Part shown: one piece after another, positions 20,435 to 62,668 of the stretch
How the letters are laid out: each line of letters begins with the position of its first letter
How positions within the stretch are numbered: position 1 is the first letter of the stretch
DNA from: Planctomycetota bacterium
GTDB lineage: Bacteria; Planctomycetota; J058; J103
DNA length: 64,000 bases
Direction of reading: 5' to 3'
NCBI GenBank assembly: GCA_026004615.1
Contig: BPJM01000001.1
Coordinates: 251,482-315,481, forward strand
Position numbers and translations under genes: made by a program
Notes under the pieces: generated by a model
Told to the model about the DNA's origin: nothing
The model's database searches: none
What the model saw: only the letters and a program-made list of their open reading frames with translations

Positions 20435-20651
20435 GGTCCTGCCCCTCCTCCTCCGGCGGGCCCGCCCCTGCCGGGCAGCCCGCACGCCCTTCAGGGTATC
20501 GGCCGCGCCGCCGGCCGGCTTTCGCCCCCGCCGGCTGGCCGGCCTGCCCGCCGGTGGGCTATGCTTGCGGGGAGCGGGCGGCAGCCGCCGGGGGGAGCGG
20601 CCGGGCGCCCGCTGTGATCCGGGGGGCGGTGGTCGGTGGAGTCTCCAGGCC

Positions 20652-31020: not shown

Positions 31021-31076
31021 GACGTCCCGGGCGCTGCACGGTCAGCCGTGGCTGCCGGCGCCGGTGGAGGAATCCG

Positions 31077-31553
31077 ATGGTGCGGTGCCAGCCCTCCGCC
31101 ATGCGGGCGATCATCGAGCACGCCGAGGAGGGATACCCCGCCGAGGTGTGCGGGCTGCTGCTGGGGCGGCAGGCCGAGCAGGGCTGCACCGTGGAGTGCG
31201 CGCTGCGCGCGCGCAACCTCGAGCCGGCGCGGGCGCGCGAGCGCTACGAGCTCGATCCGCGCGATTATCTCCGCGCCGACGAACAGGCCCGCGCGCAGGG
31301 GCTCGAGATCGTCGGGGTCTACCATTCCCACCCCGATCATCCCGCGCGGCCGTCGGCGACCGACCGCGAGCGGGCGTGGGAGGGCTGGCGCTACCTGATC
31401 GTCGCGGTCGCGGCCGGCCGGGCGCAGCAAGTGCGCGCCTGGCGGCTCGCGGGCGAGGAGTTCCTCGAGGAGCCGATCGCCCCCGGCCCTCCGGGCGAGC
31501 AGCCCGCCGGCGGGCCGGTGCCAGCGAACAGACCCGGCCGGCATCCATGGTGA
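31077..31553 (+). CDS. mec: JAMM/MPN+ metalloprotease (Mec-type, CysO-associated)
   Basis: EVCGLLLG (catalytic Glu) and VGVYHSHPDHPARPSATD (HxH..S..D JAMM motif). It lies adjacent to the Ubl/E1 and cysM genes. Confidence 0.85.
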   Translation: MVRCQPSAMRAIIEHAEEGYPAEVCGLLLGRQAEQGCTVECALRARNLEPARARERYELDPRDYLRADEQARAQGLEIVGVYHSHPDHPARPSATDRERAWEGWRYLIVAVAAGRAQQVRAWRLAGEEFLEEPIAPGPPGEQPAGGPVPANRPGRHPW

Positions 31554-31650
31554 GCGGCAGAGCCCGCCCGCGCTCCGGTCCGGGCAAAGCCGCCCGCACG
31601 GCCGCTGCGGCCGGTCACCGAAAGGAAAAAAGGAAAGGTGGAGAGCTGCG

Positions 31651-33117
31651 ATGGCCATCGTGAGGATTCCGACCCCGCTGCGCAGCCTGGTCGGCGGGGC
31701 CGACGAGGTCGAAGTGGCGGCGGCGAACGTGCGCGAGGCGCTGGAGGAGCTGTCCCGGCGGCACGAGGGCCTGCGGGAGCGGCTGCTCGGCCCGGACGGC
31801 GAGCTGCGCCACTTCGTGAACCTGTACGTGGGCGCCGACGATATCCGCGATCGCGACGGACTGGAGACACCGCTCGCGGAGCGCGACGTGGTCTCGATCG
31901 TGCCCGCGATCGCGGGCGGCCTGCCCGATGTGCGCGCGCTGATGGCGGAGCTGCGCCAGCGGGTGCGCGAGGTGAGCGCCGAGCAGGTGCACGAGCTGCT
32001 GCGCCGCCCGGGCCCCAGGCCCGTGCTCATCGACGTGCGGGAGCCGGACGAGGTCGAGCAGGGCATGATCCCCGGCGCGCTCGCCATCCCGCGCGGACTG
32101 CTCGAGTTCCGCATCGAGCAGGCGGTACCCGACCGCGCCACCCCTATCGTCGTGCACTGCGCGAGCGGCGGCCGCTCGCTGCTCGCGGCGGACAGCCTGC
32201 AGCGGCTCGGCTACCGGGACGTCGCCTCCATGGCGGGCGGCTACCGCGCCTGGGAGCAGGCGGGCTACGAGACGACCCGGCCGTTGCGGCTGAGCCCCGC
32301 GCAGCGCCGCCGCTACCTGCGGCATCTGGCGATCCCGGAGGTCGGCGAGCAGGGCCAGCTGCGGCTGCTCGGCGCCACGGTGCTGCTCGTGGGCGCAGGG
32401 GGCCTGGGCTGCCCGGCGGCCTATTTCCTGGCCGCCGCCGGAGTGGGCCGGCTCGTCATCGTCGATGACGACGTGGTGGACGAGACCAACCTGCAGCGGC
32501 AGATCCTGCACACCGTCGACCGCATCGGCCAGCCGAAGGTGGACTCCGCGCGCCGCCAGCTGCTCGCGCTCAACCCCGACATCGAGGTGGTCGGGGTGCA
32601 GCAGCGGCTGACCAGCGCCAACGTCTCGGAGCTGGTCGCCGCCGCCGATGTGGTGCTCGATGGCTCGGACAACTTCCCCACCCGGTACCTGCTCAACGAC
32701 GCGTGCGTGCTGCACCGCAAGCCCTGCGTGCACGGCAGCGTCTTCCGCTTCGAGGGCCAGGTGACGGTGTTCTGGCCCGGGCGCGGCCCCTGCTACCGGT
32801 GCCTGTATCCGGCGCCGCCGCCCCCGGAGCTGGCGCCCTCGTGTGCGGAAGCAGGGGTGCTCGGGGTGCTGCCCGGGGTGATCGGGCTGCTCGAGGCGGT
32901 GGAGGTGATCAAGATCATCCTCGGCCAGGGCGAACCGCTGGTCGGCCGCCTGCTCACCTACGATGCCCTGCGGGCGCGGTTCACCGAGCTGCGCACCCGG
33001 CGCGATCCGGACTGCGCCTACTGCGGCGAGGGCCGTCCCTTCCCGGGCTTCATCGACTACGAGCAGTTCTGCGCCAGCGCGGGTGCAGGCCAGCCGGCCG
33101 CGCCCGCAGCGCGCTGA
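31651..33117 (+). CDS. triple fusion: CysO/MoaD-like ubiquitin-fold sulfur carrier (aa 1-90, ending AIAGG) + rhodanese + MoeB/ThiF-type E1 adenylyltransferase (MoeZ-like)
   Basis: MAIVRIPTPLR..HFVNLYVGADDI..VSIVPAIAGG (beta-grasp ending in GG at 31915-31920) runs straight on, with no stop, into a rhodanese domain (VLIDVREPDE..IVVHCASGGRS active loop). Then an E1 domain: LLVGAGGLGCPAAYFLAAAGVGRLVIVDDDVVDETNLQRQ, CYRC and CAYC zinc pairs, PSCAEAGVLG. Confidence 0.85.
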   Translation: MAIVRIPTPLRSLVGGADEVEVAAANVREALEELSRRHEGLRERLLGPDGELRHFVNLYVGADDIRDRDGLETPLAERDVVSIVPAIAGGLPDVRALMAELRQRVREVSAEQVHELLRRPGPRPVLIDVREPDEVEQGMIPGALAIPRGLLEFRIEQAVPDRATPIVVHCASGGRSLLAADSLQRLGYRDVASMAGGYRAWEQAGYETTRPLRLSPAQRRRYLRHLAIPEVGEQGQLRLLGATVLLVGAGGLGCPAAYFLAAAGVGRLVIVDDDVVDETNLQRQILHTVDRIGQPKVDSARRQLLALNPDIEVVGVQQRLTSANVSELVAAADVVLDGSDNFPTRYLLNDACVLHRKPCVHGSVFRFEGQVTVFWPGRGPCYRCLYPAPPPPELAPSCAEAGVLGVLPGVIGLLEAVEVIKIILGQGEPLVGRLLTYDALRARFTELRTRRDPDCAYCGEGRPFPGFIDYEQFCASAGAGQPAAPAAR

Positions 33118-33130
33118 GGCGGCAGCGCCC

Positions 33131-34189
33131 ATGGCTCGCCGCCCGCCGGCGGAGCCGGCCCCCGGGCCCGGGCAGCGCGGCAGCGCGCCACCGGCGACCG
33201 GCCTCGACCTTCGTACCGCTCCGGCGCTCGCGGAGCTCCCGGTGCGCCCGGGCCCGGGCCTGCCGCCCGAGCCCCGCTACCGCGAGCTGCTGGCGCGCCA
33301 CCCGGTGCTGGCGCTGATCGGCAACACGCCGCTGGTGCGGATCGATCTGTTCCGCGAGGAGCTGCCCGGGGTCGAGATCTGGGCCAAGGCCGAGTTCCTC
33401 AATCCGGGCGGCTCGCTCAAGGATCGCCCCGTGCTGCGGATGCTGGCGGAGGCCTGGCTGGCGGGCGCGCTCGCCGGCCGTACCGTGATCGACTCCTCCT
33501 CGGGCAACGCCGGCATCGCGTACGCGATGATCGGTGGCTTGCTCGGGGTCGCGATCGAGCTGGTGGTGCCGGGCAACGCCTCCGCCGAACGCCAGCAGCG
33601 GATCGTGGCGCACGGCGCGCAGCTGCGGCTGACCGATCCGCTGCTCGGCTACGACGAGGCCTTGCGCGAGGCGCACCGGCGCGCCGCCGCCGAGCCGGAC
33701 CGGTATTACCTGGCGGATCAGTACGCCAACCCCCACAACTGGCTCGCCCACTATCACGGCACCGCCGCCGAGATCCTGGCGCAGACCGGGGGCGAACTCA
33801 CCGACTTCGTGGCCGGCGTCGGTACCGGCGGCACCATCACCGGCTGTGGCCGCCGGCTCAAGGAGCACGACCCGCGCATCGAGGTGAGCTGCGTGCGCCC
33901 GGAGAGCTTCCCCGGCATCGAGGGGCTCAAGCCGCTCGGCGCGCCGGGCGACATCGTGCCGGCGATCCTGGACCAGGGCGTGATCGACCGCTGGATCGAG
34001 GTGCGGAGCGAGGACGCCCGCGCGGTCTGCCGGGCGCTGGCGCGCCAGGGGCTGTTCGTGGGGCTGAGCTCGGGGGCGTATCTGTATGCCGCGCGCGAGG
34101 TGGCGCGCCTGCGGGGCCGCGGCCGTATCGTGACCCTGCTCAACGACACCGGCGAGCGCTACTTCTCGACGCGGCTCTGGCAGACCTGA
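33131..34189 (+). CDS. cysM: cysteine synthase B-type PLP enzyme (CysM-like, thiocarboxylate-dependent)
   Basis: GNTPLVRI, AEFLNPGGSLKDRP (PLP lysine), DSSSGNAGIA, GVGTGGTITG, GLSSGA. The start at 33131 gives a low-complexity N-extension, so the true start may be further downstream. Confidence 0.88.
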   Translation: MARRPPAEPAPGPGQRGSAPPATGLDLRTAPALAELPVRPGPGLPPEPRYRELLARHPVLALIGNTPLVRIDLFREELPGVEIWAKAEFLNPGGSLKDRPVLRMLAEAWLAGALAGRTVIDSSSGNAGIAYAMIGGLLGVAIELVVPGNASAERQQRIVAHGAQLRLTDPLLGYDEALREAHRRAAAEPDRYYLADQYANPHNWLAHYHGTAAEILAQTGGELTDFVAGVGTGGTITGCGRRLKEHDPRIEVSCVRPESFPGIEGLKPLGAPGDIVPAILDQGVIDRWIEVRSEDARAVCRALARQGLFVGLSSGAYLYAAREVARLRGRGRIVTLLNDTGERYFSTRLWQT

Positions 34190-37731: not shown

Positions 37732-39543
<1,812 letters not shown>

Positions 39544-39559: not shown

Positions 39560-40426
39560 TCACCGTTGCGCCTCGTCGATGCGGTCACACACCGCAAAGT
39601 GGTACACGAAGGCGAGCAGGGCTGCGAGCACCAGCAGTACCGCGCCGCCCCAGCCCGGCCGCAATCCCATGAGCACCAGCCCGCACAGCACGCTCGCGCC
39701 CACCAGCCCGGCAAGCAGCCAGGCATTCGCCCGATTGCTGCGCCGCCGGACCACGGCGACCACGACCGGATGGAGCGCAAACGGCAGGCCGCCGGTGAAC
39801 AACAACCAGACGAGCAACCGCACCAGGCCCGAGAACGACCGCATCGTCGCATCCAGCCAGTCCACGGACCACCGGCTGTCGATGCGCCTGGCGCTTCGCA
39901 CCAACCCGCCGGGGACCTCCGCCTCGTCGCGCAGCCGGATCAGCCGCGCGCGCAGCTCGACCTCGGCCCCGAGGCCCCGGCGCCCGTCGGTGAATGCTCC
40001 CAGCTCGGAGAACAGCACTCCTTCCACCAGCTCGTCGCCTGCGGCCAGCGCGCGGCCGAGCTCGATCGCCTGCTCGCGGTTTGCCGGCGCCGCGCCGCCG
40101 AACCGCTCGGCGACGACCTCGCGCACCCGCCCCAGCCCGACCAGAAAATAGAGTTCCCGGTCCTCGACCGCCTCGTAGAGCAGGTCCGTCACCCGCCCGT
40201 CGAGGTCGCGGTATACCGGCGCCACCACCAGCTTGCGGATCTCGTCGCGCCGCGGCAGCGCGGCCGCCACCTCGCGCACCACCCGCTCGGCCAGCACGCG
40301 CCGGTACGGATCCAGCTCGCGCCGGGGCTGCCCGCCGAACAGCTTGCCGGCCAAAAACCAGACCAGCACGCCGGTGGCGGCTGCCAGAAAGGCGATTTCG
40401 ACGATCCGCGCCGCCGTCCGAAACAT
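39560..40426 (-). CDS. polytopic membrane protein, unknown function (cluster member)
   Basis: N-terminal TM (IVEIAFLAAATGVLVWFLAG), a ~170-aa soluble region, then three C-terminal TM helices. There are 16 nt to the downstream kinase gene and 3 nt to the upstream gene. Confidence 0.7.
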   Translation of the reverse strand: MFRTAARIVEIAFLAAATGVLVWFLAGKLFGGQPRRELDPYRRVLAERVVREVAAALPRRDEIRKLVVAPVYRDLDGRVTDLLYEAVEDRELYFLVGLGRVREVVAERFGGAAPANREQAIELGRALAAGDELVEGVLFSELGAFTDGRRGLGAEVELRARLIRLRDEAEVPGGLVRSARRIDSRWSVDWLDATMRSFSGLVRLLVWLLFTGGLPFALHPVVVAVVRRRSNRANAWLLAGLVGASVLCGLVLMGLRPGWGGAVLLVLAALLAFVYHFAVCDRIDEAQR

Positions 40427-40429
40427 GCC

Positions 40430-42424
40430 TCAGACCGCCGCGTGCATGGGTTCGCGGATCACCCACAGATCCTGCACCCGCTCGGCGGTGCGGATCGTGA
40501 ACGCGACCTCCTCCCGCCGCTCCGCCTCCCAGACATGAAGCGCGAATCCGCCGCGCGTCACGCCGAACACCAGGTCCGAGGCCCCATCGACCCAGCGGAT
40601 CTGATCGGGGCCGCGGTAGTCGAACGAGCCGCCCTCCTCGAGCGAAACCGCGGTGATGCCGTGCTCCTTGGCGCCGATGAGCAGGTGCGGCATGCCGCCG
40701 ATCTCGGCCACCCGCAGCATGTAGATCGGATTGGCCTTGCGCACCCCGACCTCCCGCGGCGAACCCGGGTCATCCACCGACCAGCGCAGCACCCGACCCT
40801 CGCTGGTGCCTGCGAAGATCTCGTGGCGGGTGGTGGCAAAGGCCGTGACGGCGCCATGACCACCCCGGTAGCGCACAAGCGCCCGTTCCGGGTGCAGCAG
40901 CTCCGCGCGGTAGACGTCCGGCCCCGACGAGAAGTACATGCGCCCCTGACCGTCGATCGTCACCCCGCGCGTGACCTCCTGCCCGCGCGTCACCTCCTCG
41001 AACAGCTGCTCCGGTCCGCGCACCTGATACTGGTCCCAGCGGTACAAGCCCAGCTCGGAATGGGTGGCGTAGATGTAGCCGTCGAAGTACGCAGCCGCGT
41101 TGACCCCGCCCTGGCCGCGCGGCTCGCGCGGAAAGCGCAGCGCACGCGCCGTCGCGGGCAGCCCCTCCTGCACCAGATAGACCCCGCGCTGCGCGCCGGC
41201 CAGCACGCACGGCCCCTCGCGGGTGACGGCAGCCCGCACGCTGCGCACGAATCCGAGCGGCCCCCCGGTGAAGTCGTAGCACTCGCGGGGCCCCTCGCGC
41301 CGGCTCGGATTGGCCGGATCGTAGGCGAGCGCCTGCTGCCCGAGGGCCAGCAGCACGCGCCGGGTACGCATGCCCCCCTCCGCCAGCCGCCGCTGCCGCT
41401 CCCCCTCGCACTGGGCCATGTGGCGGGCAAACTTCTCCAGCCGCTCCTGCAGCCGCCGCTCCAGCTCGTCCACCTGCGCCGCGGCGAGCTGTTCCGGCGT
41501 CATGTCGCGGCGGATCAGCTCGCGGATCAGCTCCGCGCGCAGCCGCTCGTCCTCCAGGAGGAAGATGAGCGCCTTGGTCTCGTCCATGCCCAGCTGGCGC
41601 CGGATGGCCTCGAAACGGCGCAGCTCCTCCTCGGTCCGGCGGCGTTCCAGCTCGCTCTTGAGCGAGAGATCCTTGAGCACGCCCTGGAAGCGCAGCGCCC
41701 GCGCCAGTTCCTCGACCTCGGCGCGCTGCAGCTGATCGCTGCGCTCGATGCGCACCCGCAGCTCCTGGATCCGCTCGTGCTGCGCCAGTGCCTCCTCACG
41801 CGCGCGCGCCTCGGCGCGCTGGCGGCGCAGCTCCTCGTACGCCGCACAGGCGAACGAGGGGTAGCGCACCTCCAGCACCTCCAGCCCGGCACCGAACGCA
41901 AGCGCCCCCAGCTCCTCGCGCACCAGCGGCTCCAGCACCGCGCGCGCCTCCGACTCCATGAGTTCCTCGGTGCCGCAGCCGCGCACGTAGCGTCCCAGCC
42001 CCGCCTGCACCCCGGGCCTGAGATAGGCACGCAGATCGTCGAGCGCCACCGCTGCCCGCGCCCGCGCGACCAGCAGCGTCCGCTCGAACTGCTCGACGTC
42101 GATGGCGCGGCGCGGCAGCCGCACCACCACCTCGACGCCCGCGGTCGCCTCGTCGCCGTCGCGCGTCCGCAATCCGCTCACCTCGAAGGCAATCGCAACG
42201 TCCAGCTGCTTGATCAACAGCGCCCGAAAACCGTCCCGCGGCCCGCTCGCCCGCTCGCCCTCCCCCAAAAGCCGCTCCTGCCCGTCGTCGTAGCGCACGA
42301 GCGCCACCGCGCCCTGCGGGACCACGAGCTGCTTCGACAGCAGACCCGGCAGCTCGGCCGCCTCGACGCGCAGCCCCAGCACCTCCGGCGCGTCCGCAAA
42401 GCCCGACCACTCGCTCGTGCCCAT
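40430..42424 (-). CDS. SPFH/band-7-like N-domain + long coiled coil + C-terminal beta-propeller-like protein (cluster member)
   Basis: ATG at 42424 (MGTSEWSGF..). N-part: LVVPQGAVALVRYDDG..DVAIAFEVSGLRTRDGDEATAGVEVVVRLPRRAIDVEQF.. (SPFH-like, by inference). Glu/Arg coiled coil: EELRRQRAEARAREEALAQHERIQELR... C-part: repeated beta-strand blades (..VYLV..YIYATHSELGLYRW..GRMYFSSG..EIFAGTSEGRVLRWS..LLIGAKEHGITAV..). Confidence 0.7.
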   Translation of the reverse strand: MGTSEWSGFADAPEVLGLRVEAAELPGLLSKQLVVPQGAVALVRYDDGQERLLGEGERASGPRDGFRALLIKQLDVAIAFEVSGLRTRDGDEATAGVEVVVRLPRRAIDVEQFERTLLVARARAAVALDDLRAYLRPGVQAGLGRYVRGCGTEELMESEARAVLEPLVREELGALAFGAGLEVLEVRYPSFACAAYEELRRQRAEARAREEALAQHERIQELRVRIERSDQLQRAEVEELARALRFQGVLKDLSLKSELERRRTEEELRRFEAIRRQLGMDETKALIFLLEDERLRAELIRELIRRDMTPEQLAAAQVDELERRLQERLEKFARHMAQCEGERQRRLAEGGMRTRRVLLALGQQALAYDPANPSRREGPRECYDFTGGPLGFVRSVRAAVTREGPCVLAGAQRGVYLVQEGLPATARALRFPREPRGQGGVNAAAYFDGYIYATHSELGLYRWDQYQVRGPEQLFEEVTRGQEVTRGVTIDGQGRMYFSSGPDVYRAELLHPERALVRYRGGHGAVTAFATTRHEIFAGTSEGRVLRWSVDDPGSPREVGVRKANPIYMLRVAEIGGMPHLLIGAKEHGITAVSLEEGGSFDYRGPDQIRWVDGASDLVFGVTRGGFALHVWEAERREEVAFTIRTAERVQDLWVIREPMHAAV

Positions 42425-42483: not shown

Positions 42484-43635
42484 TCAGTTCGCGCGCGCGT
42501 ACTGCTCGAACCGCGCCAGCTCCTCCGGTCGCACCGAAGGGCGCAGCTCCTCCAGCAACCGCTCCAGCAGCGCCGCGTCGATCACCGCTTCCTCCCCGCG
42601 CTCCACCGCCGCCAGGAAGGACTCCGCGGCCGCGGTGTCGCACAGGTTGCGTACATCCGCCCCCGACCAGCCCTCCAGCCGTGCCGCCAGCAGGTCCAAA
42701 TCGACGTCGCGGGCCACCGGCCGCTCCGCCAGGTACATCTCCAGCATCTTGCGCCGCGCCGGCAGGTCCGGCAGCGGCACGTACACCTTGGCGTCGAACC
42801 GCCCCGGCCGCAGCACCGCCGGATCGAGCGACCACGGCTCGTTGGTCGCGCCCAAGAAGAGCAGCGGGTTCTTGCCGTCGCTGTCGAACCCCTCCAGCTC
42901 CGCGAGCACCTGTGGCACCACGCGCTGCATCACGCTCGACTGGGTGTCGCGCCGCGCCGGCACCAGCGCCTCGATCTCGTCGATGAAGATCACGCTCACC
43001 GGGTGGCGCCGCGCCTCGGCGAACAGCTCCGCCACGTTCTTCTCCGACTCGCCGACCCACTTCGACAGGATCTCGCTGGGGCGCACCGTGAAGAACGCTG
43101 CCTCGACCTCGCCCGCCACCGCCTTCGCGATCAGCGTCTTGCCCGTGCCCGGCGGCCCGTAGAGCAACAGCCCCCCTCCGGGACGGATCCGGTACCGGCG
43201 GGCCACCTCGGCGTGCCGCAGGGGATAGATCAACTTGAGCCGGATCTGCTCCTTGACCTCCTCCAGCCCGGCCACGTCCGCAAACCGTACCCGCGGCCGC
43301 TCGGCCTGACGGAAGCCGGCCGGCCCCGCTGCCTCCAGCGCCTCCGCCTGGCCCAGGCGCGCGGGCGCGGCGCCCTCGGCGCGCGCCGCGCCGCCCCGCG
43401 GCGGCGCCTGCGGGTCGATACGGCGCGCCAGCTCCTTGAGCCGGTGCGCGTTGCGCACGCGCTGTTCGCGCAGCCGGCCCTCGGAGGCCGCCGCCACCCG
43501 GTACAGGTATTCCGCAGCCTTGAGCAGGCGGTAGCGCGCTTCCTGCCACGCGCCGGCGCGGTAGGCCGCCAGCCCGCGTTCGCGGCTCTCCTCGAAGCGC
43601 TCCAGCAGGAAGCGCTGGCTCGCGCCGCCGCCCAT
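42484..43635 (-). CDS. Vps4/katanin/spastin-clade AAA+ ATPase with N-terminal MIT-like three-helix domain (copy 1)
   Basis: ATG at 43635. N-terminus: RERGLAAYRAGAWQEARYRLLKAAEYLYRVAAASEGRLREQRVRNAHRLKELARRI (MIT-like). GLLLYGPPGTGKT (Walker A), SKWVGESEKNVAELF (pore loop 1 of the meiotic clade), VIFIDEIEAL (Walker B), GATNEPWSLDPAVLRPGRFD, VYVPLPDLPARRKML. Confidence 0.85.
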   Translation of the reverse strand: MGGGASQRFLLERFEESRERGLAAYRAGAWQEARYRLLKAAEYLYRVAAASEGRLREQRVRNAHRLKELARRIDPQAPPRGGAARAEGAAPARLGQAEALEAAGPAGFRQAERPRVRFADVAGLEEVKEQIRLKLIYPLRHAEVARRYRIRPGGGLLLYGPPGTGKTLIAKAVAGEVEAAFFTVRPSEILSKWVGESEKNVAELFAEARRHPVSVIFIDEIEALVPARRDTQSSVMQRVVPQVLAELEGFDSDGKNPLLFLGATNEPWSLDPAVLRPGRFDAKVYVPLPDLPARRKMLEMYLAERPVARDVDLDLLAARLEGWSGADVRNLCDTAAAESFLAAVERGEEAVIDAALLERLLEELRPSVRPEELARFEQYARAN

Positions 43636-43691: not shown

Positions 43692-45233
43692 CTACCAGCA
43701 GGCGCGGCGTGTCCCTGCCGCACCCGAGCCCTCGCGCGGCGCCGGCAGGCGGTAGGTGGCGAGCGGCTCGCGTTCGCCCCGCCGGTAGACCCGCACCAGG
43801 CGTTCCCCGCTGACGGCATCCGTGGCGAGCACCATGCGAAAGCGGCCGCTGCGATACACTCCATCCGGGCGCCCGTCGTGCGCCAGCCAGCCCGCGGCCC
43901 CGGCGGCCCGCTCGAGCGGGGGCAGCTCCAGCCCGTCCCACCGAACGCCCAGCCCCTGGCGCGAGAGCACCAGCCACGCGGCCACCGCGAGCGGCGAGGC
44001 CACCGCCCCCAGCACGAGGGCAGCACCCAGTGCCCGCGAGGCGCGCCGGCTGGGCCGGCTGCCGGCGCTGCGCCCCGCGGCCGGCCCAGCCGGCTGCTGC
44101 GCCCGCCGCCCCGAGCGGAGCGCGCGCCAGCCCTCGCCGCCAGCACCGAACGGCGCGAGGTGGCCGGCCCCCGACGGCGCCAACGAGCCCGGTCCCTGCC
44201 CGCTCGCAACAAAGCCCGCCACCTGCCCGGCGCCAGCTGGCCCGGCGCAGAGAACCGGCCCCGCCGCCCGGCCTTCGCCACTCCCGCCCTGGCGCGCCTC
44301 CTCGCCGAACAAGGCGCCCAGAACCGCCGCCCAGCTCGCCGCCACAGGCGCCCCGGACGCAACGGCACGCACCGCCGCCGCCCCGGGTCGCTGGCTGGGC
44401 AGCTCACCCCAGCGCGGACCGCCGGCGATCGCCTCCAGGTCGCGGGCCAGCTCCGCCAGCGAACCGTAGCGCCGCTCGCGGCCCGTGTAGCAGCGGCTGT
44501 AGATGTGGTCCCACCACCACGAGATCGCCGGGTTCACGTCGCTCGGCAGGTCGCGCCCCTGCGGCAGGATCCCGGTCAACATCTCGAACAACAACACCCC
44601 GATCGCGTAGATATCGGCGCGGTGGTCGATCTGTTCGCCGGGCCGCTCCTGCTCCGGCGCCATGTAGTGCACGGTCCCGAGCGCGCCCCCGGTCACCAGG
44701 CTCGGGCGGAGCCCGTCCTGCCCCGGCGGAGCCTGCCCGGCGCTCGGGCCACCGCCGACCTGGAAGTCCGTGATGCGCACCCGCCAGGTCTCTGCCCGCC
44801 CGCCCGCCTCCGCCCCCTCGACGAGCACGTTTTCCGGCTTGAGGTCGCCGTGCACCACCCCGCGGGCGTGCGCGTAACCTACGGCCTCCACCACCTGGCG
44901 CAACACCGCGGCGGCGTCCGCCACCTCCAGCCGCCCCCGCTCGCGCAACAGCTGCCGCAGGCTGCGCCCCACCACCAGCTCCCGCACCAGGAACGCCGGG
45001 CGGTGGCTGAGGTTGACATCGTGCACGCGGACGATCCCGGGGTGCTCCAGGCCGAACTGCGCCCGCGCTTCCCGCAACAGCCCCGCGATCGCGCTGTCCG
45101 AGGTGGCGAGCTTGAGGGCGACCGTTCGCGACAGATAGACGTGCTCGGCCCGCCACACCTCGCCGTGCGCCCCGACGCCGAGGCGCTCGACCAGCCGCCA
45201 CTGCTGCACCCGCGTCCCCTCGCGCACGTCCAT
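43692..45233 (-). CDS. membrane-anchored Ser/Thr kinase-like protein with atypical catalytic motifs (HGD, DFQ)
   Basis: ATG at 45233. LGVGAHGEVW, VALKL, HGDLKPENVLV, ITDFQVGG, VHYMAPEQ. A long Gly/Ala/Pro linker, then a TM (ALGAALVLGAVASPLAVAAWLVL) and a ~100-aa extracytoplasmic tail. Confidence 0.82.
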   Translation of the reverse strand: MDVREGTRVQQWRLVERLGVGAHGEVWRAEHVYLSRTVALKLATSDSAIAGLLREARAQFGLEHPGIVRVHDVNLSHRPAFLVRELVVGRSLRQLLRERGRLEVADAAAVLRQVVEAVGYAHARGVVHGDLKPENVLVEGAEAGGRAETWRVRITDFQVGGGPSAGQAPPGQDGLRPSLVTGGALGTVHYMAPEQERPGEQIDHRADIYAIGVLLFEMLTGILPQGRDLPSDVNPAISWWWDHIYSRCYTGRERRYGSLAELARDLEAIAGGPRWGELPSQRPGAAAVRAVASGAPVAASWAAVLGALFGEEARQGGSGEGRAAGPVLCAGPAGAGQVAGFVASGQGPGSLAPSGAGHLAPFGAGGEGWRALRSGRRAQQPAGPAAGRSAGSRPSRRASRALGAALVLGAVASPLAVAAWLVLSRQGLGVRWDGLELPPLERAAGAAGWLAHDGRPDGVYRSGRFRMVLATDAVSGERLVRVYRRGEREPLATYRLPAPREGSGAAGTRRACW

Positions 45234-45393: not shown

Positions 45394-45990
45394 TTACTCG
45401 CGCTCGCGCAGCTCGCGTTCGATCTCGCCGAGCCCCGACTCGATCTCGCGGTCCAGCGCCCGCTGTTCCTCGTGCGCCGCTTCCTCCTCGATGAGCCGGT
45501 CGATCTCGGCCTCGCTGACCTCCTCCTCGTCGAAGGCCTTCTCGGTGAACATCGTCTCCTGCGAGGCCTCGAGGAACAGCTCCGCCTGCTGCTCGAAGGT
45601 CTCGGCCTGCAGCATGGCCTTCTCGAAGTTGGCCTGGACCTCCGCCCAGTTGATGTCCCCGAAGACCTCGGCGATCGACTTCGAGATCATGGCCAGCGAG
45701 CGGGCGAACTGGCCCTGCATCTCCATCTGGTTCTTGCGCTGCGCGGCCGTCTCGATCGCCAGCAGCTGCCGTTCCAGTGCCCGCCGCTGCGCCGCCGTCT
45801 GGCGGATGGTGCGCTTGAGGAAGCGGACCTGGTCCTCCGCGCCGAGCTGGCGCGCTCGCCGCGCCTTCTTGATGTACTCCTGCTCGTGGCGCAACAGCTC
45901 CCGGATGCTCCGCTTGCAGGCGTTGATGCCCTTGCGGATCTCCATGTCTCGCTCCAGCTTGCGTTCCTGCTTGGACTTGAACAGCCCCAT
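45394..45990 (-). CDS. ESCRT-III superfamily protein, CHMP2/3 (Vps2/24)-like (198 aa)
   Basis: ATG at 45990. MGLFKSKQERKLERDMEIRKGINACKRSIRELLRHEQEYIKKARRARQLG..FLKRTIRQTAAQRRALERQLLAIETAAQR..QMEMQGQFARSLAMISKSIAEV.. has a basic helical-hairpin N-half and an acidic C-tail ..EEEVSEAEIDRLIEEE... Confidence 0.8.
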   Translation of the reverse strand: MGLFKSKQERKLERDMEIRKGINACKRSIRELLRHEQEYIKKARRARQLGAEDQVRFLKRTIRQTAAQRRALERQLLAIETAAQRKNQMEMQGQFARSLAMISKSIAEVFGDINWAEVQANFEKAMLQAETFEQQAELFLEASQETMFTEKAFDEEEVSEAEIDRLIEEEAAHEEQRALDREIESGLGEIERELRERE

Positions 45991-46098: not shown

Positions 46099-47385
46099 TC
46101 AGACCGACATGCTCTCCTGCCAGCGGATGAACTGCTCCATCTCCTCCGGACTGGTCTGCGGCGTGATGCGCTGCGCGGCGTGCTCGAAGTCCGCCCGCGT
46201 CAGCTGGCGCACCCGCAAGCGGTAACCGCGCACCGCCTCCAGGCCGCGGTCGACGAGCTCCGCCAGCTCGGGGTTCATCTCCGCGATCATGCGGTTCTGC
46301 ACCTCCTTGGCGAACCGCTCCAGCTCCCGGCCGCTGTAGCCGGCCGTCATCTCGACCAGCTCCTCCAGCGGCACCTCGCTCGCAAACCCCTTGGCGGCGA
46401 AGTGGATGTTCAGGATCGCGGCGCGGCTCGCCGCGTCGGGCAACGGGATGAGCACCTTCTTGTCGAAGCGCGACAGCACCGCCTCATCGAGATCCCAGGG
46501 ACGGTTGGTGGCGGCGATCGTCAGCACGTAGATGTCATCCCGGCCCTTCTCGGCCAGCCCATCGAGCTCCGCCAGGATGGTCGACAGCAGTCGCCGCTCC
46601 GCCCCCGAATCCTCGCGGTCACGCGAGCCGGCGAGCGCATCGAACTCATCCAGGAACACCACCGAGGGCGAGGCATCGCGTGCCTGCCCGTACAGCTCGC
46701 TGACCAGCCGCGCCGACTCGCCGAAGTACTTGGACATGAGCGAGCTGACCTTGACGTTGTAGAACACCGCACGCGTCTCGTGTCGCGCGCTGCGCCGCAA
46801 CGCGTTGGAGGTGGCGGCGGCCAGCAGCGTCTTGCCGGTGCCGGGAGGGCCATAGAACATCATGTTCCGAAAGCGGCTGACCCGCACCCCCTCGGGCGCC
46901 TGCGCCAGCGAGAGTGCAAGCGCATACTTGATCTCGCGCTTGACCTCCTCCAGCCCCCCGATCTCGTCCCAGGTCACGCTCGAGGCTGTGATGAGCCCGG
47001 CGACCGCACTGGCCAGCGCCTCGTCGTCCTCGCGCGCCACCGAGCCTGCACGCCGCTCCAGGCCCGCGGCACCGCTCGCTCGCCCGCCGGCGGCGGGCTG
47101 ATCCTGCCGGTCGGCGGCCGGCTCCGCGCCGCGGCCCCGCTCGTGCACCGGCGGCGCCTCGCCGGCGAGCAGGCGCTTGCCCACCTCACGGAAGCGCAGC
47201 GCATCCTTTTTGTGCTTGTATTCCGAGCGCCGGTCGGGCGCGTTGTGGGCGAGCTTGAGCGCCAGCCGCGACGCCAGCTCGTAGTCCGCGGCCGCGCGCG
47301 CGTCCTCGCCTGCCAGATAGCGCTTGCGCGCCCGCTCCAGCGTCTGTACCAGCGCGCGCCTCAGATCCGTGCTCAGATCGACCAT
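46099..47385 (-). CDS. Vps4-like AAA+ ATPase with MIT-like N-domain (copy 2)
   Basis: ATG at 47385. N-terminus: LERARKRYLAGEDARAAADYELASRLALKLAHNAP..KHKKDALRFREVGKRL (MIT-like). MMFYGPPGTGKT, SKYFGESARLVSELY, VVFLDEFDAL, AATNRPWDLDEAVLSRFDKKVLIPLPD (compare Vps4 ATNIPW.LD.A..RRFE.RIYIPLPD), and a C-terminal helix ..SPEEMEQFIRWQESM. Confidence 0.85.
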   Translation of the reverse strand: MVDLSTDLRRALVQTLERARKRYLAGEDARAAADYELASRLALKLAHNAPDRRSEYKHKKDALRFREVGKRLLAGEAPPVHERGRGAEPAADRQDQPAAGGRASGAAGLERRAGSVAREDDEALASAVAGLITASSVTWDEIGGLEEVKREIKYALALSLAQAPEGVRVSRFRNMMFYGPPGTGKTLLAAATSNALRRSARHETRAVFYNVKVSSLMSKYFGESARLVSELYGQARDASPSVVFLDEFDALAGSRDREDSGAERRLLSTILAELDGLAEKGRDDIYVLTIAATNRPWDLDEAVLSRFDKKVLIPLPDAASRAAILNIHFAAKGFASEVPLEELVEMTAGYSGRELERFAKEVQNRMIAEMNPELAELVDRGLEAVRGYRLRVRQLTRADFEHAAQRITPQTSPEEMEQFIRWQESMSV

Positions 47386-47413: not shown

Positions 47414-48052
47414 TCACAGCTCGCTCTCGGAAACGGGCTCCTCTTCGAGCCGCTTCGCCAGCTTCTCCTCCCGCTCCAGCGCCTCGTCGAGCTGCCCCGC
47501 CGCCTCGGCGGCATTGATGGCGTCGATCTCCTCGAGGAACCGCGCCTTGTCCGGATCCGCCTCCTCGGTCTCCCACGATTCGATCTCGATTCCGACCTCG
47601 TCGAGCGTCGCGTTCAGCTCGTCGATGTAGGCCGCCTCATCCACCTCTGCCCCCCGCAGCTTCTCGTCGAGTCCGGAGACGCGCACCCGCTCGATCAGCG
47701 AGCGGATACGGTTCTGGTCCCCGCTGCGCTCCAGCCGCTCCAGCCCGCGCAGATACCGCGTCAGGCCGACCATCTCCAGCGCCACCACCTTGCTCTCGCG
47801 CTTGAGATAGGCGGTATCGATCCGCACCTGGCGCAGCTCCTCCCACAGCACGTCCACCTCGACGCCGCTGCCCTCCCGCCGCGCCCGCTTGATGCGGTCC
47901 ACCAGCTCGGAGCGGCGGCTCTCCAGCTTGCGCATCTGCATGCGCTTCTTGCGCGCCTCACGCTTGAGCCCCAGCAGCGCCACCTTGAGGTCGCGGCTGG
48001 TGACCTCCTTTTTGCGGCCGAAGAGCTGCTCGAAGATCCCCTTGATCGGCAT
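47414..48052 (-). CDS. ESCRT-III/Snf7-like protein (212 aa) with MIM-like C-terminal motif
   Basis: ATG at 48052 after GGGAGA. MPIKGIFEQLFGRKKEVTSRDLKVALLGLKREARKKRMQMRKLESRRSELVDRIKRARREG.., a helical hairpin with a basic N-half. Acidic C-half ending ..LEREEKLAKRLEEEPVSESEL. Confidence 0.75.
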   Translation of the reverse strand: MPIKGIFEQLFGRKKEVTSRDLKVALLGLKREARKKRMQMRKLESRRSELVDRIKRARREGSGVEVDVLWEELRQVRIDTAYLKRESKVVALEMVGLTRYLRGLERLERSGDQNRIRSLIERVRVSGLDEKLRGAEVDEAAYIDELNATLDEVGIEIESWETEEADPDKARFLEEIDAINAAEAAGQLDEALEREEKLAKRLEEEPVSESEL

Positions 48053-48160: not shown

Positions 48161-48961
48161 CTACTCCAGCTCCAGGCGCCGTTCCCGCACCTCCTCGGTC
48201 GGCTCGCGCCGCGGCGGAGCGGGCGCCGGTTCCCCGCGCTCGATCTCCCTCTCGATCGCGTCTCCTTGCTGGGCGGCGCGCTCGGCCGGCGGGGCGGCTT
48301 CGCCCGCCGGCGGTGCGAGCTCGCGCACCGGGCGCGCGAGCTCGGCGGCCGGAGGTGCCAGCTCGGCCGCGGGCTCCCGCCCGCACTGCGCGGACTCGCC
48401 TTCCGCCGCCCCCGCCTCCCCGAGCAGCTCCGCCTCCAGCGCCTCCAGCTCCCGGTCCTCGCGCTCCGCACCCAGCTCCATGCTGGTGTCCAGGGTGGCG
48501 ACAGCGTGCATCGCCTCCTCGAACTTCTCGCGGCTCTCCTCGAAGCGCAGCGCGATCTCCTCGATCTGCTTGTCGTCCACGCCCCTGAGCTTCATCGCCT
48601 CCATCTCCTGGATCTTGCCGATGAGCTGCAGGTGCAGGTTGATGTTGTGCCGGTAGATGCGCTGCCGCTGCTCGTAGAGGTCCATCTGCCGGCGCAGGCG
48701 CTGGATCTGGAACAGCACGCTCTTCTTGCGGCGGCCATCGACGACGCCCGCGCGCACCTTCGCCGCCTCGCTGCGCTCCAACGCCTCCAGCTTGGCCAGC
48801 TCGCGGTCCAGCTCGTTCAGTTCCACCTCGTTGTGGGTCAGCAGCCGGTCCAGACCGTGCAGCAGCTCGCGCGTGCTGCGCGCGGTCTCGAACAGCCGCC
48901 GCGTCTCCTCCGGCAGATCCGGCCGCACGAACAGGCTCTTGATCCGATCCAGCAACGCCAC
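48161..48961 (-). CDS. ESCRT-III/Snf7-like protein (266 aa) with extended Pro/Ala/Glu-rich tail
   Basis: GTG at 48961 after GGGGAAGGA. ..ELNELDRELAKLEALERSEAAKVRAGVVDGRRKKSVLFQIQRLRRQMDLYEQRQRIYRHNINLHLQLIGKIQEMEAMK..DDKQIEEIALRFEESREKFEE.. parallels the Snf7/CHMP4 alpha1-alpha4 layout. The tail has the repeat AAELAPPAAELARPVRELAPPAGEAAPPAE. Confidence 0.72.
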   Translation of the reverse strand: MALLDRIKSLFVRPDLPEETRRLFETARSTRELLHGLDRLLTHNEVELNELDRELAKLEALERSEAAKVRAGVVDGRRKKSVLFQIQRLRRQMDLYEQRQRIYRHNINLHLQLIGKIQEMEAMKLRGVDDKQIEEIALRFEESREKFEEAMHAVATLDTSMELGAEREDRELEALEAELLGEAGAAEGESAQCGREPAAELAPPAAELARPVRELAPPAGEAAPPAERAAQQGDAIEREIERGEPAPAPPRREPTEEVRERRLELE

Positions 48962-49024: not shown

Positions 49025-50455
49025 TCACAGGCGCCGGCGCTTGAGGATCGCGCGCTCGCCGACCTCCAGGAGCGACAGCTCCGGATCGCGCGCGAGCAAC
49101 TCCCCCACCGCGCGCGCCAGCAGGCGCTCCTCCACCTCCATCTCCTCCTGGATCGCCCGCACCACCACGTGCCCGCCCCGCAGCGACAGCTCCGGATGCG
49201 ACTCCAGGTGCCGCCGCACCCGCTCCACCTTCTCGCGATCGCTCTCGGGATCGAACAGCCGCAGCACCCCGCCCCACCGCTCGTCCTCAGCATGCTGGAG
49301 CTGCCAGCGCGTGCCCCCCCGCCACTGGACCGCGCAGACCAGCCGATCGCGGCCCGCCAGGTGGTGCGCGACCTCGGGCTCCCAGCCGGTGGTCGACAGC
49401 ACCCCGACGTAGCAGAACGGCTCCTCCACCCCCCCTGCCCCCGCCAGCCCGATCAGCTCCAGCGCCCGTTCCAGCTCCGGCACCCCGGCGGGCCGACTCG
49501 CGCACCGGCGCACGAGCAGCTCCTGCAGCGGCGAGACGACACACGCTGCAAGCACCAGCCGCGTCTCGCGCCGCCCGAAGATCGAGCGCGTGAACACGCG
49601 GTAGACCGACGCCTCGTCGCGCGGCATCGCATCGAGCAGCGCCCGTTCGTAGATGCGGTGCCGCTTCATGAGGTCGACCACCTCGTCGGAGCGCGCGCGC
49701 CGCTGGTGCGTGCGGTCGCGTGGACCCGCGTTGAGCATGGTCCCGTCGAGCGGATGCGGCAGGCGGCGCACCTCCGCCATCTTCTCGTCGAAGCGCGCGA
49801 TGAACAGCTCCTCCAGCGCGCGTGCGCGCTCCAGCAGCACCGCCCCGTCGGGCAGCGCCTCGGGCAAGGGCAGCGCCGGCACCGGCGGCGGATCGCCCGC
49901 GCGGCCGCCTCCCACCACCTCGGCGACCAGGTCCAGCACCGAGACCTCGCTCGGCTGCAGCGCCCGCTTGCCGGTCAGCCGCGCGAAGAAGGCCTCCACC
50001 ACCTCGTGCGCCTGCTCGCTCGTCAGCGCCACCGGCACCAGACCCGGCGCCAGGCGCGCAGGCGGCTCGGGCGCCCCAGCCCCGGACAGCTCGCAACCGG
50101 CCGGCTGCAGGACATCCTCGTACAGCGCGCGCAGCTTCTCGGCCAGCAGCGCCGGCTCCTCGCGCAGGTTGCGCAGCACCTCGCGGATCTCCGCCAGCGA
50201 GCGGCCGAAGCGCGTCTTCATGGCGTGGATCGCCAGCAGCACCGGCAGGATCCAGTCCTCGCGGTACACCGGTGTCCGCCCGCCGCGACGCGCCTGCGGC
50301 GGCGGCAGCACGCCCTCGCTCACGTAGAAGCGCAGCGTGCGCTCCGAGGTCGGAAACCCCAGCGCCGTCGAGCGCTCCTCGATCTCGCGGTAATCGAGCA
50401 GGCGCTCCTCCTCGTCCTTCAGGCGGGCCCCCAGCTCCTGCAGTCGCTCGTTCAC
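49025..50455 (-). CDS. MerR-type HTH domain protein with large uncharacterised C-terminal region (cluster member)
   Basis: GTG at 50455. LLDYREIEERSTALGFPTSERTLRFYVSEGVLPPP is a MerR-like HTH/wing signature. The remaining ~380 aa have no domain I recognise. Confidence 0.7.
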   Translation of the reverse strand: MNERLQELGARLKDEEERLLDYREIEERSTALGFPTSERTLRFYVSEGVLPPPQARRGGRTPVYREDWILPVLLAIHAMKTRFGRSLAEIREVLRNLREEPALLAEKLRALYEDVLQPAGCELSGAGAPEPPARLAPGLVPVALTSEQAHEVVEAFFARLTGKRALQPSEVSVLDLVAEVVGGGRAGDPPPVPALPLPEALPDGAVLLERARALEELFIARFDEKMAEVRRLPHPLDGTMLNAGPRDRTHQRRARSDEVVDLMKRHRIYERALLDAMPRDEASVYRVFTRSIFGRRETRLVLAACVVSPLQELLVRRCASRPAGVPELERALELIGLAGAGGVEEPFCYVGVLSTTGWEPEVAHHLAGRDRLVCAVQWRGGTRWQLQHAEDERWGGVLRLFDPESDREKVERVRRHLESHPELSLRGGHVVVRAIQEEMEVEERLLARAVGELLARDPELSLLEVGERAILKRRRL

Positions 50456-52601: not shown

Positions 52602-53161
52602 GCGCCCGGCCCGCCGGCCCGTCCGCCCACCCGCCCGCCACCACCGCCGATCGGACACCGACCCCCGGCCGTCGCCGCCGCTGCCGGAGCCTGCCGTGGG
52701 TCTCCGCCCCCGCCACCGCCGCCCACCGGAGGATGAGACCCCGCGCCCCGGCCGGGAGCCCTGCCCCCCGCCGGCAGGCTGCCCCGAGCCGGTGTTCGAG
52801 CCCATTTCCTCGACCCCTGGCTGCCCTGCCTGCGATCCAGATTCGTTGCAGACCGGGCCGCAATGCGTATCACGACCCGGACCGGCGCGCCGCGCCTTTT
52901 ACGGAACCGGGACTTGACGCGCTGCATTGCCAGGAGACAATGCCTGGCTCGATCCGCGAGGAGACGGCGGCCCGAGCTGCGCCGAGCAGCGGCGCAACTA
53001 CGGCGCGGGGGAGCTGGCGGGTGGATTGCGTTTCGGCACCTGCGTTGCTCCCCCGACCCGGCAACGATCGGTCAGGCTCCGTCGGACAGGGAGATCGGGC
53101 TCACGCGAGCCGGGGCACGGAACCGCCCGATCTCACAGGCGCACGAAGGAGGTGAGCAGAC

Positions 53162-57888: not shown

Positions 57889-58069
57889 TGGTGCGGCCGC
57901 CGCTGGAGGGTGCCCGAGCTGCCGGAGCCCGCGGGCGCCGGCGCCGGCCTCCGGCAGCCAGCCGCCCACCTGCGGGCGCCGCCCCGCCACCCGCGCCCTG
58001 GCGGTAGGTGGCGGGGGGCGGCGGCGGCAGGCCCGCCCGGAGCCCCTGACCGGCTGCCCTGCGAGCGGA

Positions 58070-60629
<2,560 letters not shown>

Positions 60630-60995
60630 CGCGCTCTTGCCCTTCCTCTGCGTGTCTCGTCGTCGCGGCGCGCCGGCAGCCAGTCCGCCGTGCCGCGGGG
60701 TCCTGTTTTTCGACCCCTGCTCTCGGACGTCGGGCCTATCGTACTTCCGCGCCGGGCGAGCTGCAAGCGAACCAGGCCCCGCGCGAGCCATCGGCGCCCA
60801 TCCTCCAGTATGGCGCCGCCATTCCCGCCTGCCCGGCGGTGCCGCCGGCGCGAGGCGTCCGGGCCGCCCCCGGCCGGCACTCGCTCCGGCCCTCCGGCCC
60901 GCCGCGCCCGCGGTGCGCCAGCGGCGCGCGCCGGCGGGCAGCGCTCCCCGAACCGCTCTCCCCTGCGCCACCGCTGCCGGATGGAGCAGACCGTA

Positions 60996-62089: not shown

Positions 62090-62137
62090 GAGCGCCACGT
62101 CGCGCTGCTCCGGCACCCCCTTCCCCCCGGTCCGCCC

Positions 62138-62663: not shown

Positions 62664-62668
62664 GGCGC

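Follow-up and report, generated by a model that had tools for sequence, protein, structure and literature searches.

AAA1 is a 383-residue ATPase encoded on the minus strand of a 64,000-nucleotide stretch of DNA, hereafter the window, from a Planctomycetota bacterium (assembly GCA_026004615.1, contig BPJM01000001.1). It is considered here, with moderate confidence, to be a catalytically competent, ring-forming AAA+ translocase of the classic clade and to act as the Vps4/CdvC-type "ESCRT-IV" ATPase in an ESCRT-III-like system of bacteria centred on Planctomycetota. In its predicted layout a three-helix N-terminal domain is joined by a disordered linker to one AAA cassette, and a C-terminal helix follows. 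The catalytic motifs are intact, the N-terminal domain resembles MIT domains at the level of the fold, a nearby gene encodes a Snf7 homologue, E3a, and the linkage of the two genes is conserved. The features on which the argument turns are listed below; structural features come from AlphaFold2 (AF2) models.

42484..43635, minus strand: AAA1, MIT-like and single-cassette AAA ATPase of 383 aa; stop codon TGA at 42486-42484
43411..43635, minus strand: MIT-like three-helix bundle, AAA1 residues 1-75 (AF2, Foldseek, weak MIT/TPR_2 profile matches)
43306..43410, minus strand: low-complexity disordered linker, residues 76-110 (AF2, gappy alignment)
42487..43305, minus strand: AAA core, lid and C-terminal helix, residues 111-383 (Pfam AAA, AAA_lid_3; AF2)
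43135..43158, minus strand: Walker A GPPGTGKT, residues 160-167, invariant in 48/48 homologues
43051..43062, minus strand: pore loop 1, K192-W-V-G195 within SKWVGESEK, family-conserved and the same as the archaeal Cdc48 D2 loop
42793..42843, minus strand: second region of homology (SRH), N265-E-P-W ... R276-P-G-R279-F-D281, with Vps4-like NxPW and Cdc48-like RPGRFD arginine fingers
45394..45990, minus strand: E3a, Snf7-family ESCRT-III homologue of 198 aa (Pfam Snf7 and CHMP profile matches)

The AAA1 Gene and Its Family

The open reading frame at 42484-43635, singled out in the initial annotation of this DNA, is a real gene. It begins with an ATG at 43635-43633, with GGGAG 8 nt 5′ of the start, and lies 56 nt past the TAG of the preceding kinase gene; the ATG of the next gene (42424) is found 59 nt beyond the AAA1 stop. 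The G+C content of the window is about 75%, which gives rise to long spurious open reading frames in every frame. The codon-position GC, with values of about 0.9-0.99 at position 3, marks the AAA1 frame as coding and delineates a single unbroken array of minus-strand genes from about 37.7 to 50.5 kb. The strings quoted in the initial annotation, namely an N-terminal helical stretch, ILSKWVGESEKNVAELF, VIFIDEIEAL, GATNEPWSLDPAVLRPGRFD and VYVPLPDLPARRKML, are all present in the protein, which is matched in Pfam by AAA (E = 1e-40) and AAA_lid_3 (1.2e-8).

More than 100 relatives of 365-410 aa share 51-72% identity with AAA1 over about 97% of the query, the first 75 residues included, and the homologues have the same start position. 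Judged from these alignments, the conservation of the family is far beyond chance. Its membership is mostly Planctomycetota; named homologues appear as "ATP-binding protein [Planctomycetota bacterium]" or under Tepidisphaeraceae, and the JGI automatic annotation calls AAA1 homologues "transitional endoplasmic reticulum ATPase". A scan of contigs with the full family alignment was dominated by the generic Walker A pattern and contained only two family members (L007 and L008); the non-family loci returned by it were reused as real Cdc48/FtsH references.

The MIT-Like N-Terminal Domain

The initial annotation recognized an MIT pattern at the N-terminus of AAA1, and the predicted structure agrees with it. 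In the model built with the family alignment, which has a predicted local distance difference test score (pLDDT) of 89.6 overall and no β-domain insertion, three helices span about residues 3-27, 30-50 and 53-71 with pLDDT >94; modelled by itself, the domain reaches 94.5. When it was compared with the PDB by Foldseek, the top three matches were 2w2u_A, 2w2u_B and 2v6y_A (template modelling score 0.66-0.71, probability 1.0), which are the MIT domain of the S. solfataricus Vps4-like protein (CdvC) with an ESCRT-III peptide bound and the same MIT unbound. More than 15 further MIT entries follow below these three, and the lower matches comprise the MITs of SKD1, NRBF2, spartin, VPS4A/B, yeast Vps4, MITD1, katanin p60 and spastin. 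The enrichment of MIT domains among the matches of the model is unmistakable. A profile of the N-domain family gave as its best match in the PDB 2mpk (E = 0.023), which is the MIT domain from a chitin synthase of an oomycete. At fold level, in the predicted structure, AAA1 possesses the MIT domain of Vps4 and CdvC; the domain is MIT-like and belongs to a narrow, divergent family.

The linker that follows has pLDDT <50 at residues 82-103, and its length varies across homologues. An N-domain of the AAA1 family is also found in a protein of 796 aa (P0383), where it is joined to a SpoVK-type AAA (AAA_lid_6), FtsK_alpha and FtsK_SpoIIIE; this may be a real fusion or a merge of gene calls.

The Candidate ESCRT-III-Like Partners and Their Linkage to AAA1

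E3a begins with MGLFKSK and matches the Pfam Snf7 model with E = 1.7e-4 and 21.7 bits, under the gathering score of 27.3 bits; six of eight orthologues match the same model, the best at 1.2e-6. A profile of the eight orthologues finds in the PDB CHMP3 (E = 1e-4), CHMP2A (6e-3) and Snf7 (0.05), and the alignment with CHMP3 is collinear over positions 13-167, from "MGLF..." to "EIDR(L/I)". On these profile matches, E3a is regarded as a genuine Snf7-family protein. It has about 190 homologues, many with a precomputed Snf7 match; the named ones are all "hypothetical protein [Planctomycetota bacterium]", with one from Sumerlaeota.

The C-terminal helix of E3a follows the consensus D-x-x-I-x-x-G-L-x-x-I-x-K-x-L and is conserved as strongly as the core in 118 homologues. 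The helix is in register with the MIM1 consensus, which reportedly reads (D/E)xxLxxRLxxL(K/R) in the work of Obita et al. and Stuchell-Brereton et al. of 2007. In Planctomycetales-type loci the tail reads "...LRAELADLKG". E3a is proposed as the client of AAA1.

The linkage of the two genes was assessed by scoring component hidden Markov models (HMMs) on all open reading frames of the metagenome loci of the AAA1 family. The count covers 35 loci in which AAA1 is preceded by at least 5 kb and followed by at least 2.5 kb of sequence, a sample which was ascertained via AAA1 and is skewed to its nearest relatives. E3a is a neighbour of AAA1 in 21 of them, which amounts to genomic coupling of the family to a Snf7-family gene; an SPFH-like gene is found in 22, the second ATPase gene AAA2 in 6 (each with E3a), and none of these in 11. 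E3a stands immediately upstream of AAA1 in L005, L008, L088, L089, L172 and about 14 "type C" loci, and in L088 the stop and start codons of the two genes overlap.

A separate observation concerns a "solo" subgroup of AAA1, with the N-terminus "MPV(T/S)WDTFERYRQKGLDARRAGQWDSAR" and Tepidisphaeraceae-like, in which no Snf7-like, SPFH or AAA2 neighbour was detectable. Its loci are L004, L087, L103-L105, L113, L114, L120, L128, L131, L136, L161, L166 and L169. Upstream of AAA1 in L004 and L087 lies an aminopeptidase-like gene, with Creatinase_N in both loci and Peptidase_M24 as well in L004.

Two further helical proteins are encoded in the array of the window.

47414..48052, minus strand: E3b, 212 aa, with a "..LFGRKK" N-terminus and an "E.KLAKRLEEE" C-terminus
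48161..48961, minus strand: E3c, about 264-266 aa, with a Pro-rich tail; start approximate (GTG)

Both are conserved and of ESCRT-III size, with CHMP-like N-termini ("LFGRKK" and "IKSLF.R"); their C-terminal helices are acidic. They may represent ESCRT-III subunits that have diverged strongly, or else new adaptors.

The ATPase Core

AAA1 has a single classic-clade AAA cassette in which Walker A and B, the pore aromatic, sensor-1 and the arginine fingers are intact. Across 48 homologues G160-T167, D219/E220 (Walker B), K192-W193-V194-G195, N265, P267, W268, R276 and R279 are invariant or nearly so, and, because catalytic and pore residues are conserved to this degree, AAA1 should be an active translocase. 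In the AF2 model a C-terminal helix occupies residues 370-382; p97 D2 ends in a similar segment. Pfam Vps4_C is present in several members of the family; in AAA1 of the window neither MIT nor Vps4_C is matched at E ≤ 0.01.

The core motifs do not bear the weight which the initial annotation placed on them. SKWVGESEK, there described as a near-canonical Vps4 pore loop, is not diagnostic: the D2 pore loop of archaeal Cdc48 reads exactly SKWVGESE[KR] in 20 fetched loci, Nitrosopumilus, Promethearchaeum and Halobacteriales among them, so that the loop cannot be called specific to Vps4. RPGRFD has the form typical of Cdc48/FtsH, seen in 94 of 122 SRH motifs, in place of the RRRF of Vps4, and VYVPLPD is also of Cdc48/FtsH type, so that neither discriminates in favour of Vps4. 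With SKWVGESEK and RPGRFD, AAA1 carries the core motifs of Cdc48 D2. N-x-P-W is invariant in the AAA1 family (NEPWSLD) and found in 0/122 Cdc48/FtsH-type domains; it occurs also in yeast Vps4 (NIPWQLD) and in AAA2 (NRPWDLD).

Yeast Vps4, whose sequence is 437/437 identical to 5UIE_A, was the only validated Vps4 reference. It scores 244.1 bits on the NCBIfam CdvC model and 237.9 on the CDC48 model, near-equal values which indicate that these models barely separate Vps4 from Cdc48. Three relatives of AAA1 (P0044, P0043 and P0097) can be aligned with the 370-position CdvC model from one end to the other, in one case with residues 7-368 on positions 10-364, and score 212-235 bits on CdvC and 241-252 on CDC48. 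The equivalog cut-off of the CdvC model (650 bits) is reached neither by AAA1 (192.6) nor by these relatives nor by yeast Vps4; since yeast Vps4 itself falls below it, the cut-off delimits crenarchaeal CdvC orthologues only.

That the top PDB matches of AAA1 are p97 is no argument against Vps4-likeness, as the validated yeast Vps4 also draws p97/VAT next; these proteins rank high because their two domains are scored twice. The subfamily was assessed by per-domain comparisons, including a rough neighbour-joining tree and a matrix of group-HMM scores, both with one validated Vps4 and without CdvC, katanin or spastin sequences. In the tree the AAA1 family forms a separate clade, with domain 1 of P0030 (52.6% identity) and P0022 (core 46.7% identical to AAA1) as its sisters. 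Held-out AAA1 scores 258 bits on the Cdc48-D2 group, whereas Vps4 scores 223 on the AAA1 family and 233 on Cdc48-D2. Scores, tree and motifs therefore suggest a lineage of its own for the AAA1 core, about as far from Cdc48-D2 as from Vps4 and with a hybrid SRH.

P0030 (643 aa, from a Heimdallarchaeota metagenome-assembled genome), P0022 and P0114 carry tandem hybrid NxPW...RPGRFD cassettes and have no N-terminal helical domain. The P0030 protein hints at cross-domain exchange or at a mis-binned contig.

Evidence against a Vps4/CdvC Identity and the Unfoldase Alternative

A number of results weigh against the identification of AAA1 as a Vps4/CdvC-type ATPase. The Foldseek E-values of the N-domain are weak (0.03-0.09 and up to 1), as is to be expected of 75 helical residues, and its similarity to MIT is at the level of the fold only. 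Pfam MIT matches 3 of 35 members of the family (best 4e-4), with TPR_2 matching 21 of the 35, and searches of Pfam and of PDB sequences with the N-domain of the window alone returned no MIT match. An exhaustive search of 1.84 billion representatives with the N-domain profile gave 261 clusters, nearly all with the domain N-terminal to AAA cassettes; canonical MIT proteins are not among them. The MIT claim of the initial annotation thus holds for the fold and is weak at the level of sequence. In the core, the SRH signature of the meiotic clade is incomplete, since NEPWSLD provides one half of it and RPGRFD follows instead of RRRF. In sequence and in structure the core stands closer to D2 of Cdc48/p97 than to Vps4: whole-protein searches of the PDB, NCBIfam and Foldseek all put Cdc48/p97/VAT (D2) first. 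The NCBIfam scores of AAA1 descend from CDC48 (243.9 bits) through PAN (217) and FtsH (198) to CdvC (192.6), no Vps4 entry stands within the Foldseek top 50, and the identity of the core is 41-45% to Cdc48 D2 and 39.9% to yeast Vps4, which groups with AAA2 rather than AAA1 in the rough tree.

On the side of the partners, the central arginine of MIM1 is replaced by glycine in E3a. E3b and E3c were considered as ESCRT-III paralogues, which was not demonstrated: their hhalign probability against E3a is <1%, and PDB profile searches with them gave no match to any solved structure, ESCRT-III included. The SPFH-like gene neighbours AAA1 as often as E3a does (22/35 vs 21/35), and 11 of the 35 loci have no detectable ESCRT-III neighbour.

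A rival reading makes AAA1 a generic Cdc48-like unfoldase or segregase whose N-domain would adapt it to a client that is not ESCRT-III (for example the SPFH protein, a membrane protein or phosphorylated substrates of the kinases), with the Snf7-like neighbourhood reflecting a shared membrane-stress regulon and not an enzyme-substrate pair. The best sequence and structure matches, the pore loop and the RPGRFD fingers are those of Cdc48/p97 D2, the nearest outgroups (P0030 and P0022) are tandem AAA proteins without the N-domain, the loci without an ESCRT-III neighbour include L004 and L087, and the SPFH-like gene is as common a neighbour as E3a. However, the N-domain matches MIT specifically and not the fold of the Cdc48 N-domain; AAA1 has one cassette with a C-terminal helix, and its relatives fit CdvC end to end. 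E3a, moreover, has a conserved MIM-like tail and is directly adjacent in many lineages, with overlapping codons in L088. The generic unfoldase is judged unlikely.

The N-domain, the layout, the CdvC-model fit of the relatives, the NxPW signature and the Snf7 linkage favour a Vps4-type identity, and the pore loop and RPGRFD do not. Of the two findings which the initial annotation would have held jointly against it, likeness to another AAA subfamily is seen in the Cdc48-like core, whereas the N-domain, instead of lacking likeness to MIT, is MIT-like.

For the Vps4/CdvC-type ATPase, the binding, hexamerisation, substrate and cellular process that we infer can be put together as follows. The MIT-like domain of AAA1 would dock on the MIM1-like C-terminal amphipathic helix of E3a and possibly also on the acidic helices at the C-termini of E3b and E3c. 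With its flexible linker, the ring would be able to assemble on the polymer, from which the K-W-V pore loops would pull subunits, and the ESCRT-III polymer would thereby be remodelled or disassembled at the inner membrane. The SPFH and membrane proteins would form a platform, the Ser/Thr kinases (FHA, RDD) would act as regulators, and together they probably localise and regulate the system. AAA2, katanin/Vps4-like and of MIT type, may be a second ATPase whose role overlaps with that of AAA1 or is a specialised part of it.

Comparison with Known Systems

AAA1 resembles CdvC and Vps4 in that a three-helix MIT-like bundle at the N-terminus is followed by a flexible linker and a single classic AAA cassette, with a predicted helix at the C-terminus. 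It shares with them the N-x-P-W-x-L-D motif, there is no β-domain, relatives of AAA1 fit the 370-position CdvC model, and the gene is encoded beside a Snf7-family gene whose product has a MIM1-like C-terminal helix. It differs from them in the core, with RPGRFD for RRRF, higher scores on Cdc48-D2 profiles and a position apart from yeast Vps4 in the rough tree; in the N-domain, which in the window is undetected as MIT by Pfam; and in being bacterial, with SPFH, Ser/Thr kinase-FHA-RDD and MerR-like partners. To our knowledge, such partners are not known from Cdv or ESCRT loci.

With the D2 domain of Cdc48, VAT and p97, AAA1 shares the identical pore loop SKWVGESEK, the RPGRFD arginine fingers, VY(V/I)PLPD and 41-45% identity. 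Unlike these proteins, it has one AAA domain in 383 aa and not tandem D1-D2, and its N-domain is an all-helical three-helix bundle and not a double-psi barrel. The "PW" of its SRH, found in 0/122 Cdc48/FtsH-type domains, and its separate clade also distinguish it from Cdc48 D2. The tandem NxPW...RPGRFD proteins (P0030, P0022 and P0114) have the closest cores outside the AAA1 family and the same hybrid SRH, but contain two cassettes and no N-terminal helical domain.

An "MIT+Vps4-AAA-ATPase" has been described by Ravi et al. 2024 (mSystems, PMC11237479, Suppl. Text S2.2) as transferred to several bacterial phyla including Planctomycetes. The example given is ACB74714.1 of Opitutus terrae, these proteins are read as acting near the membrane, and in their operons snf7 is displaced by a TPR+6TM protein (PMC11237479). 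AAA1, compared with them by their description, is likewise an MIT-type AAA ATPase in bacteria, but Snf7-family genes are kept beside it.

The PspA/Vipp1-PspF system also encodes a bacterial protein of the ESCRT-III superfamily with an AAA+ protein, and an SPFH/Band-7 partner is reported at some PspA loci. E3a, however, matches Snf7/CHMP and not PspA_IM30, and PspF is a sigma-54 activator AAA+, whereas AAA1 is a classic-clade translocase with an MIT-like domain.

The Second ATPase

46099..47385, minus strand: AAA2 ("copy 2" of the initial annotation), AAA ATPase of 428 aa with a related helical N-domain, pore loop SKYFGES and "NRPWDLD...SRF"

The motif NRPWDLD...SRF of AAA2 is of katanin/Vps4 type. 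AAA1 and AAA2 share 36% identity, in the AAA core only, and belong to different AAA clades. Their N-domains are collinear (hhalign E = 8.8e-5, probability 60%), and from this alignment the two ATPases probably carry the same MIT-like module. The AAA2 family is widespread in Planctomycetota.

In the window, and likewise in L001-3, L006, L091, L092, L132, L168 and L172, one array encodes both ATPases; L172 is a compact core with the order 212-201-AAA2-E3a-AAA1, and at least 15 contigs are shared between the lists of AAA1 and AAA2 matches. Complete AAA1-only clusters are also found (L005, L088, L089 and about 14 "type C" loci), and L171, on a 3.09-Mb Planctomycetes contig, is an AAA2-only cluster with the order MerR-like-E3c-E3b-AAA2-kinase-E3a. 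The paralogues are therefore not always together, and either can be the sole ATPase. Whether the two always co-occur was a question put in the initial annotation, and these clusters answer it in the negative.

The initial annotation had also suggested that the two ATPases could form a hetero-hexamer. In favour of such a pairing, the two share an array in the window and several loci, and their N-domains are probably homologous; the clusters with a single ATPase weaken the idea, and the cores belong to separate clades at 36% identity. The absence of constant pairing argues against an obligate hetero-hexamer, which is regarded as very improbable, and for overlapping or sub-specialised roles. A further view, which took AAA1 for the constant ATPase and AAA2 for an addition, was rejected: it is partly an artefact of ascertainment, the loci having been found via AAA1, and L171 has AAA2 only.

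The Gene Array

The remaining genes of the array are as follows.

49025..50455, minus strand: 476-aa protein with an N-terminal MerR-type HTH (Pfam MerR_1 1.7e-7), first conserved gene of the array
43692..45233, minus strand: Ser/Thr protein kinase of 513 aa between E3a and AAA1 (Pfam Pkinase 1.6e-33)
40430..42424, minus strand: SPFH/Band-7-like protein of 664 aa, directly downstream of AAA1
39560..40426, minus strand: membrane protein of 288 aa, conserved in the cluster by synteny
37732..39543, minus strand: Ser/Thr kinase-FHA-RDD membrane protein of 603 aa (Pfam Pkinase 3.3e-36, FHA 5.5e-7, RDD 5.3e-19), last gene of the array

In the direction of transcription the order is MerR-HTH, E3c, E3b, AAA2, E3a, Ser/Thr kinase, AAA1, SPFH-like protein, membrane protein and kinase-FHA-RDD. 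The complete 11-gene array is syntenic in the relatives L001-L003 at about 60% identity, and across relatives it is flanked by the same housekeeping genes (FGGY kinase and glyoxalase); the presence of the 513-aa kinase is variable among them. The N-terminal region of the 664-aa protein is SPFH/Band-7-like and its C-terminal half β-rich (propeller-like); the protein also has a long coiled coil. Its copy in the window has no Pfam match; the SPFH assignment comes from a 53%-identity orthologue that passes Pfam Band_7 (30.8 bits vs a cut-off of 23.6).

Defence islands often contain kinase, FHA and membrane-protein modules. That the array, which has such modules, is an anti-phage or abortive-infection membrane system with AAA1 as its ATPase effector or regulator is most improbable and was set aside: in PADLOC both AAA proteins partially match IetA and TRIP13, and the kinases match PD-T4-6 in part, but these matches reflect generic AAA and kinase similarity (about 120 bits), E3a-c and the SPFH, membrane and MerR-like proteins match no PADLOC model, and the constant housekeeping context at about 60% identity is unlike a mobile defence island.

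Other Features of the Window

The window DNA is bacterial. E3a, AAA1 and AAA2 have nearest relatives that all carry the label Planctomycetota, and the window also encodes MltA, an HtrA-like protease, ThiG, an MrfA/MrfB-like pair, a JAB-ThiS/ThiF-PALP sulfur-carrier cluster and a tRNA-Arg.

2591-6729, plus strand: DEAD/Helicase_C/MZB protein (MrfA-like) followed by an RNase_H_2+TPR protein (MrfB-like), a putative mitomycin-repair-type pair
20361-25271, plus strand: very large (about 1636 aa) PKD/REJ/Big_9 surface protein
31023-34189, plus strand: Prok-JAB (31023-31553), ThiS-rhodanese-ThiF fusion (31399-33117) and PALP/CysM-like enzyme (32909-34189)
53156-55006, plus strand: Kelch-propeller+TIG protein with a signal-peptide-like N-terminus
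58000-64000: last 6 kb, with a G+C of 0.67-0.70 after about 0.75 before

The JAB-ThiS/ThiF-PALP genes look like a ubiquitin-like sulfur-carrier (CysO/Mec-type) cluster for cysteine biosynthesis. The cluster lies about 3.5 kb past the end of the ESCRT-like array and is probably unrelated to it; it deserves mention since, in Asgard archaea, ubiquitin-like systems occur linked to ESCRT loci. The last 6 kb, with their lower G+C, could be a foreign or differently constrained segment.

Significance for Planctomycetota and the ESCRT Family

In recent reviews the pairing of ESCRT-III with a Vps4-type ATPase is confined to archaea and eukaryotes (Makarova et al. 2024, PMC10936438), and a 2025 review states that a Vps4-like ATPase "appears absent in bacteria" (PMC7619361). 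The AAA1 family runs opposite to these statements, as it presents a conserved bacterial operon in which a Snf7-family protein with a MIM-like tail is encoded together with an MIT-like AAA translocase. A search of the literature found no description of a bacterial operon of Snf7-family and MIT-AAA proteins with SPFH and kinase partners, although an earlier description is possible. An ESCRT-III/Vps4-type system is of a known kind; new here are its occurrence in Bacteria, an AAA lineage of hybrid Cdc48-D2/Vps4 character and its set of accessory genes.

A bolder interpretation, considered quite unlikely, is that Planctomycetota and their relatives own a genuine scission machine of ESCRT-III and Vps4 type, with Snf7 subunits, one or two MIT-AAA ATPases and Ser/Thr-kinase control, which drives a eukaryote- or Cdv-like process. 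If this were true, the process would be FtsZ-independent division or budding, or the formation of vesicles or invaginations of the cytoplasmic membrane; the ATPase would be an intermediate between Cdc48-D2 and Vps4, and the ESCRT-III/Vps4 partnership would predate the archaeal stem or have been assembled twice. Planctomycetia are cited among the lineages that have no FtsZ (PMC10936438).

If the mechanism proposed for AAA1 holds, the partnership of ESCRT-III with its ATPase would be extended to Bacteria, and Planctomycetota would possess a candidate machine for membrane remodelling or division. An AAA core joining the signatures of Cdc48-D2 and Vps4 would, in addition, bear on the proposed origin of Vps4 from Cdc48.

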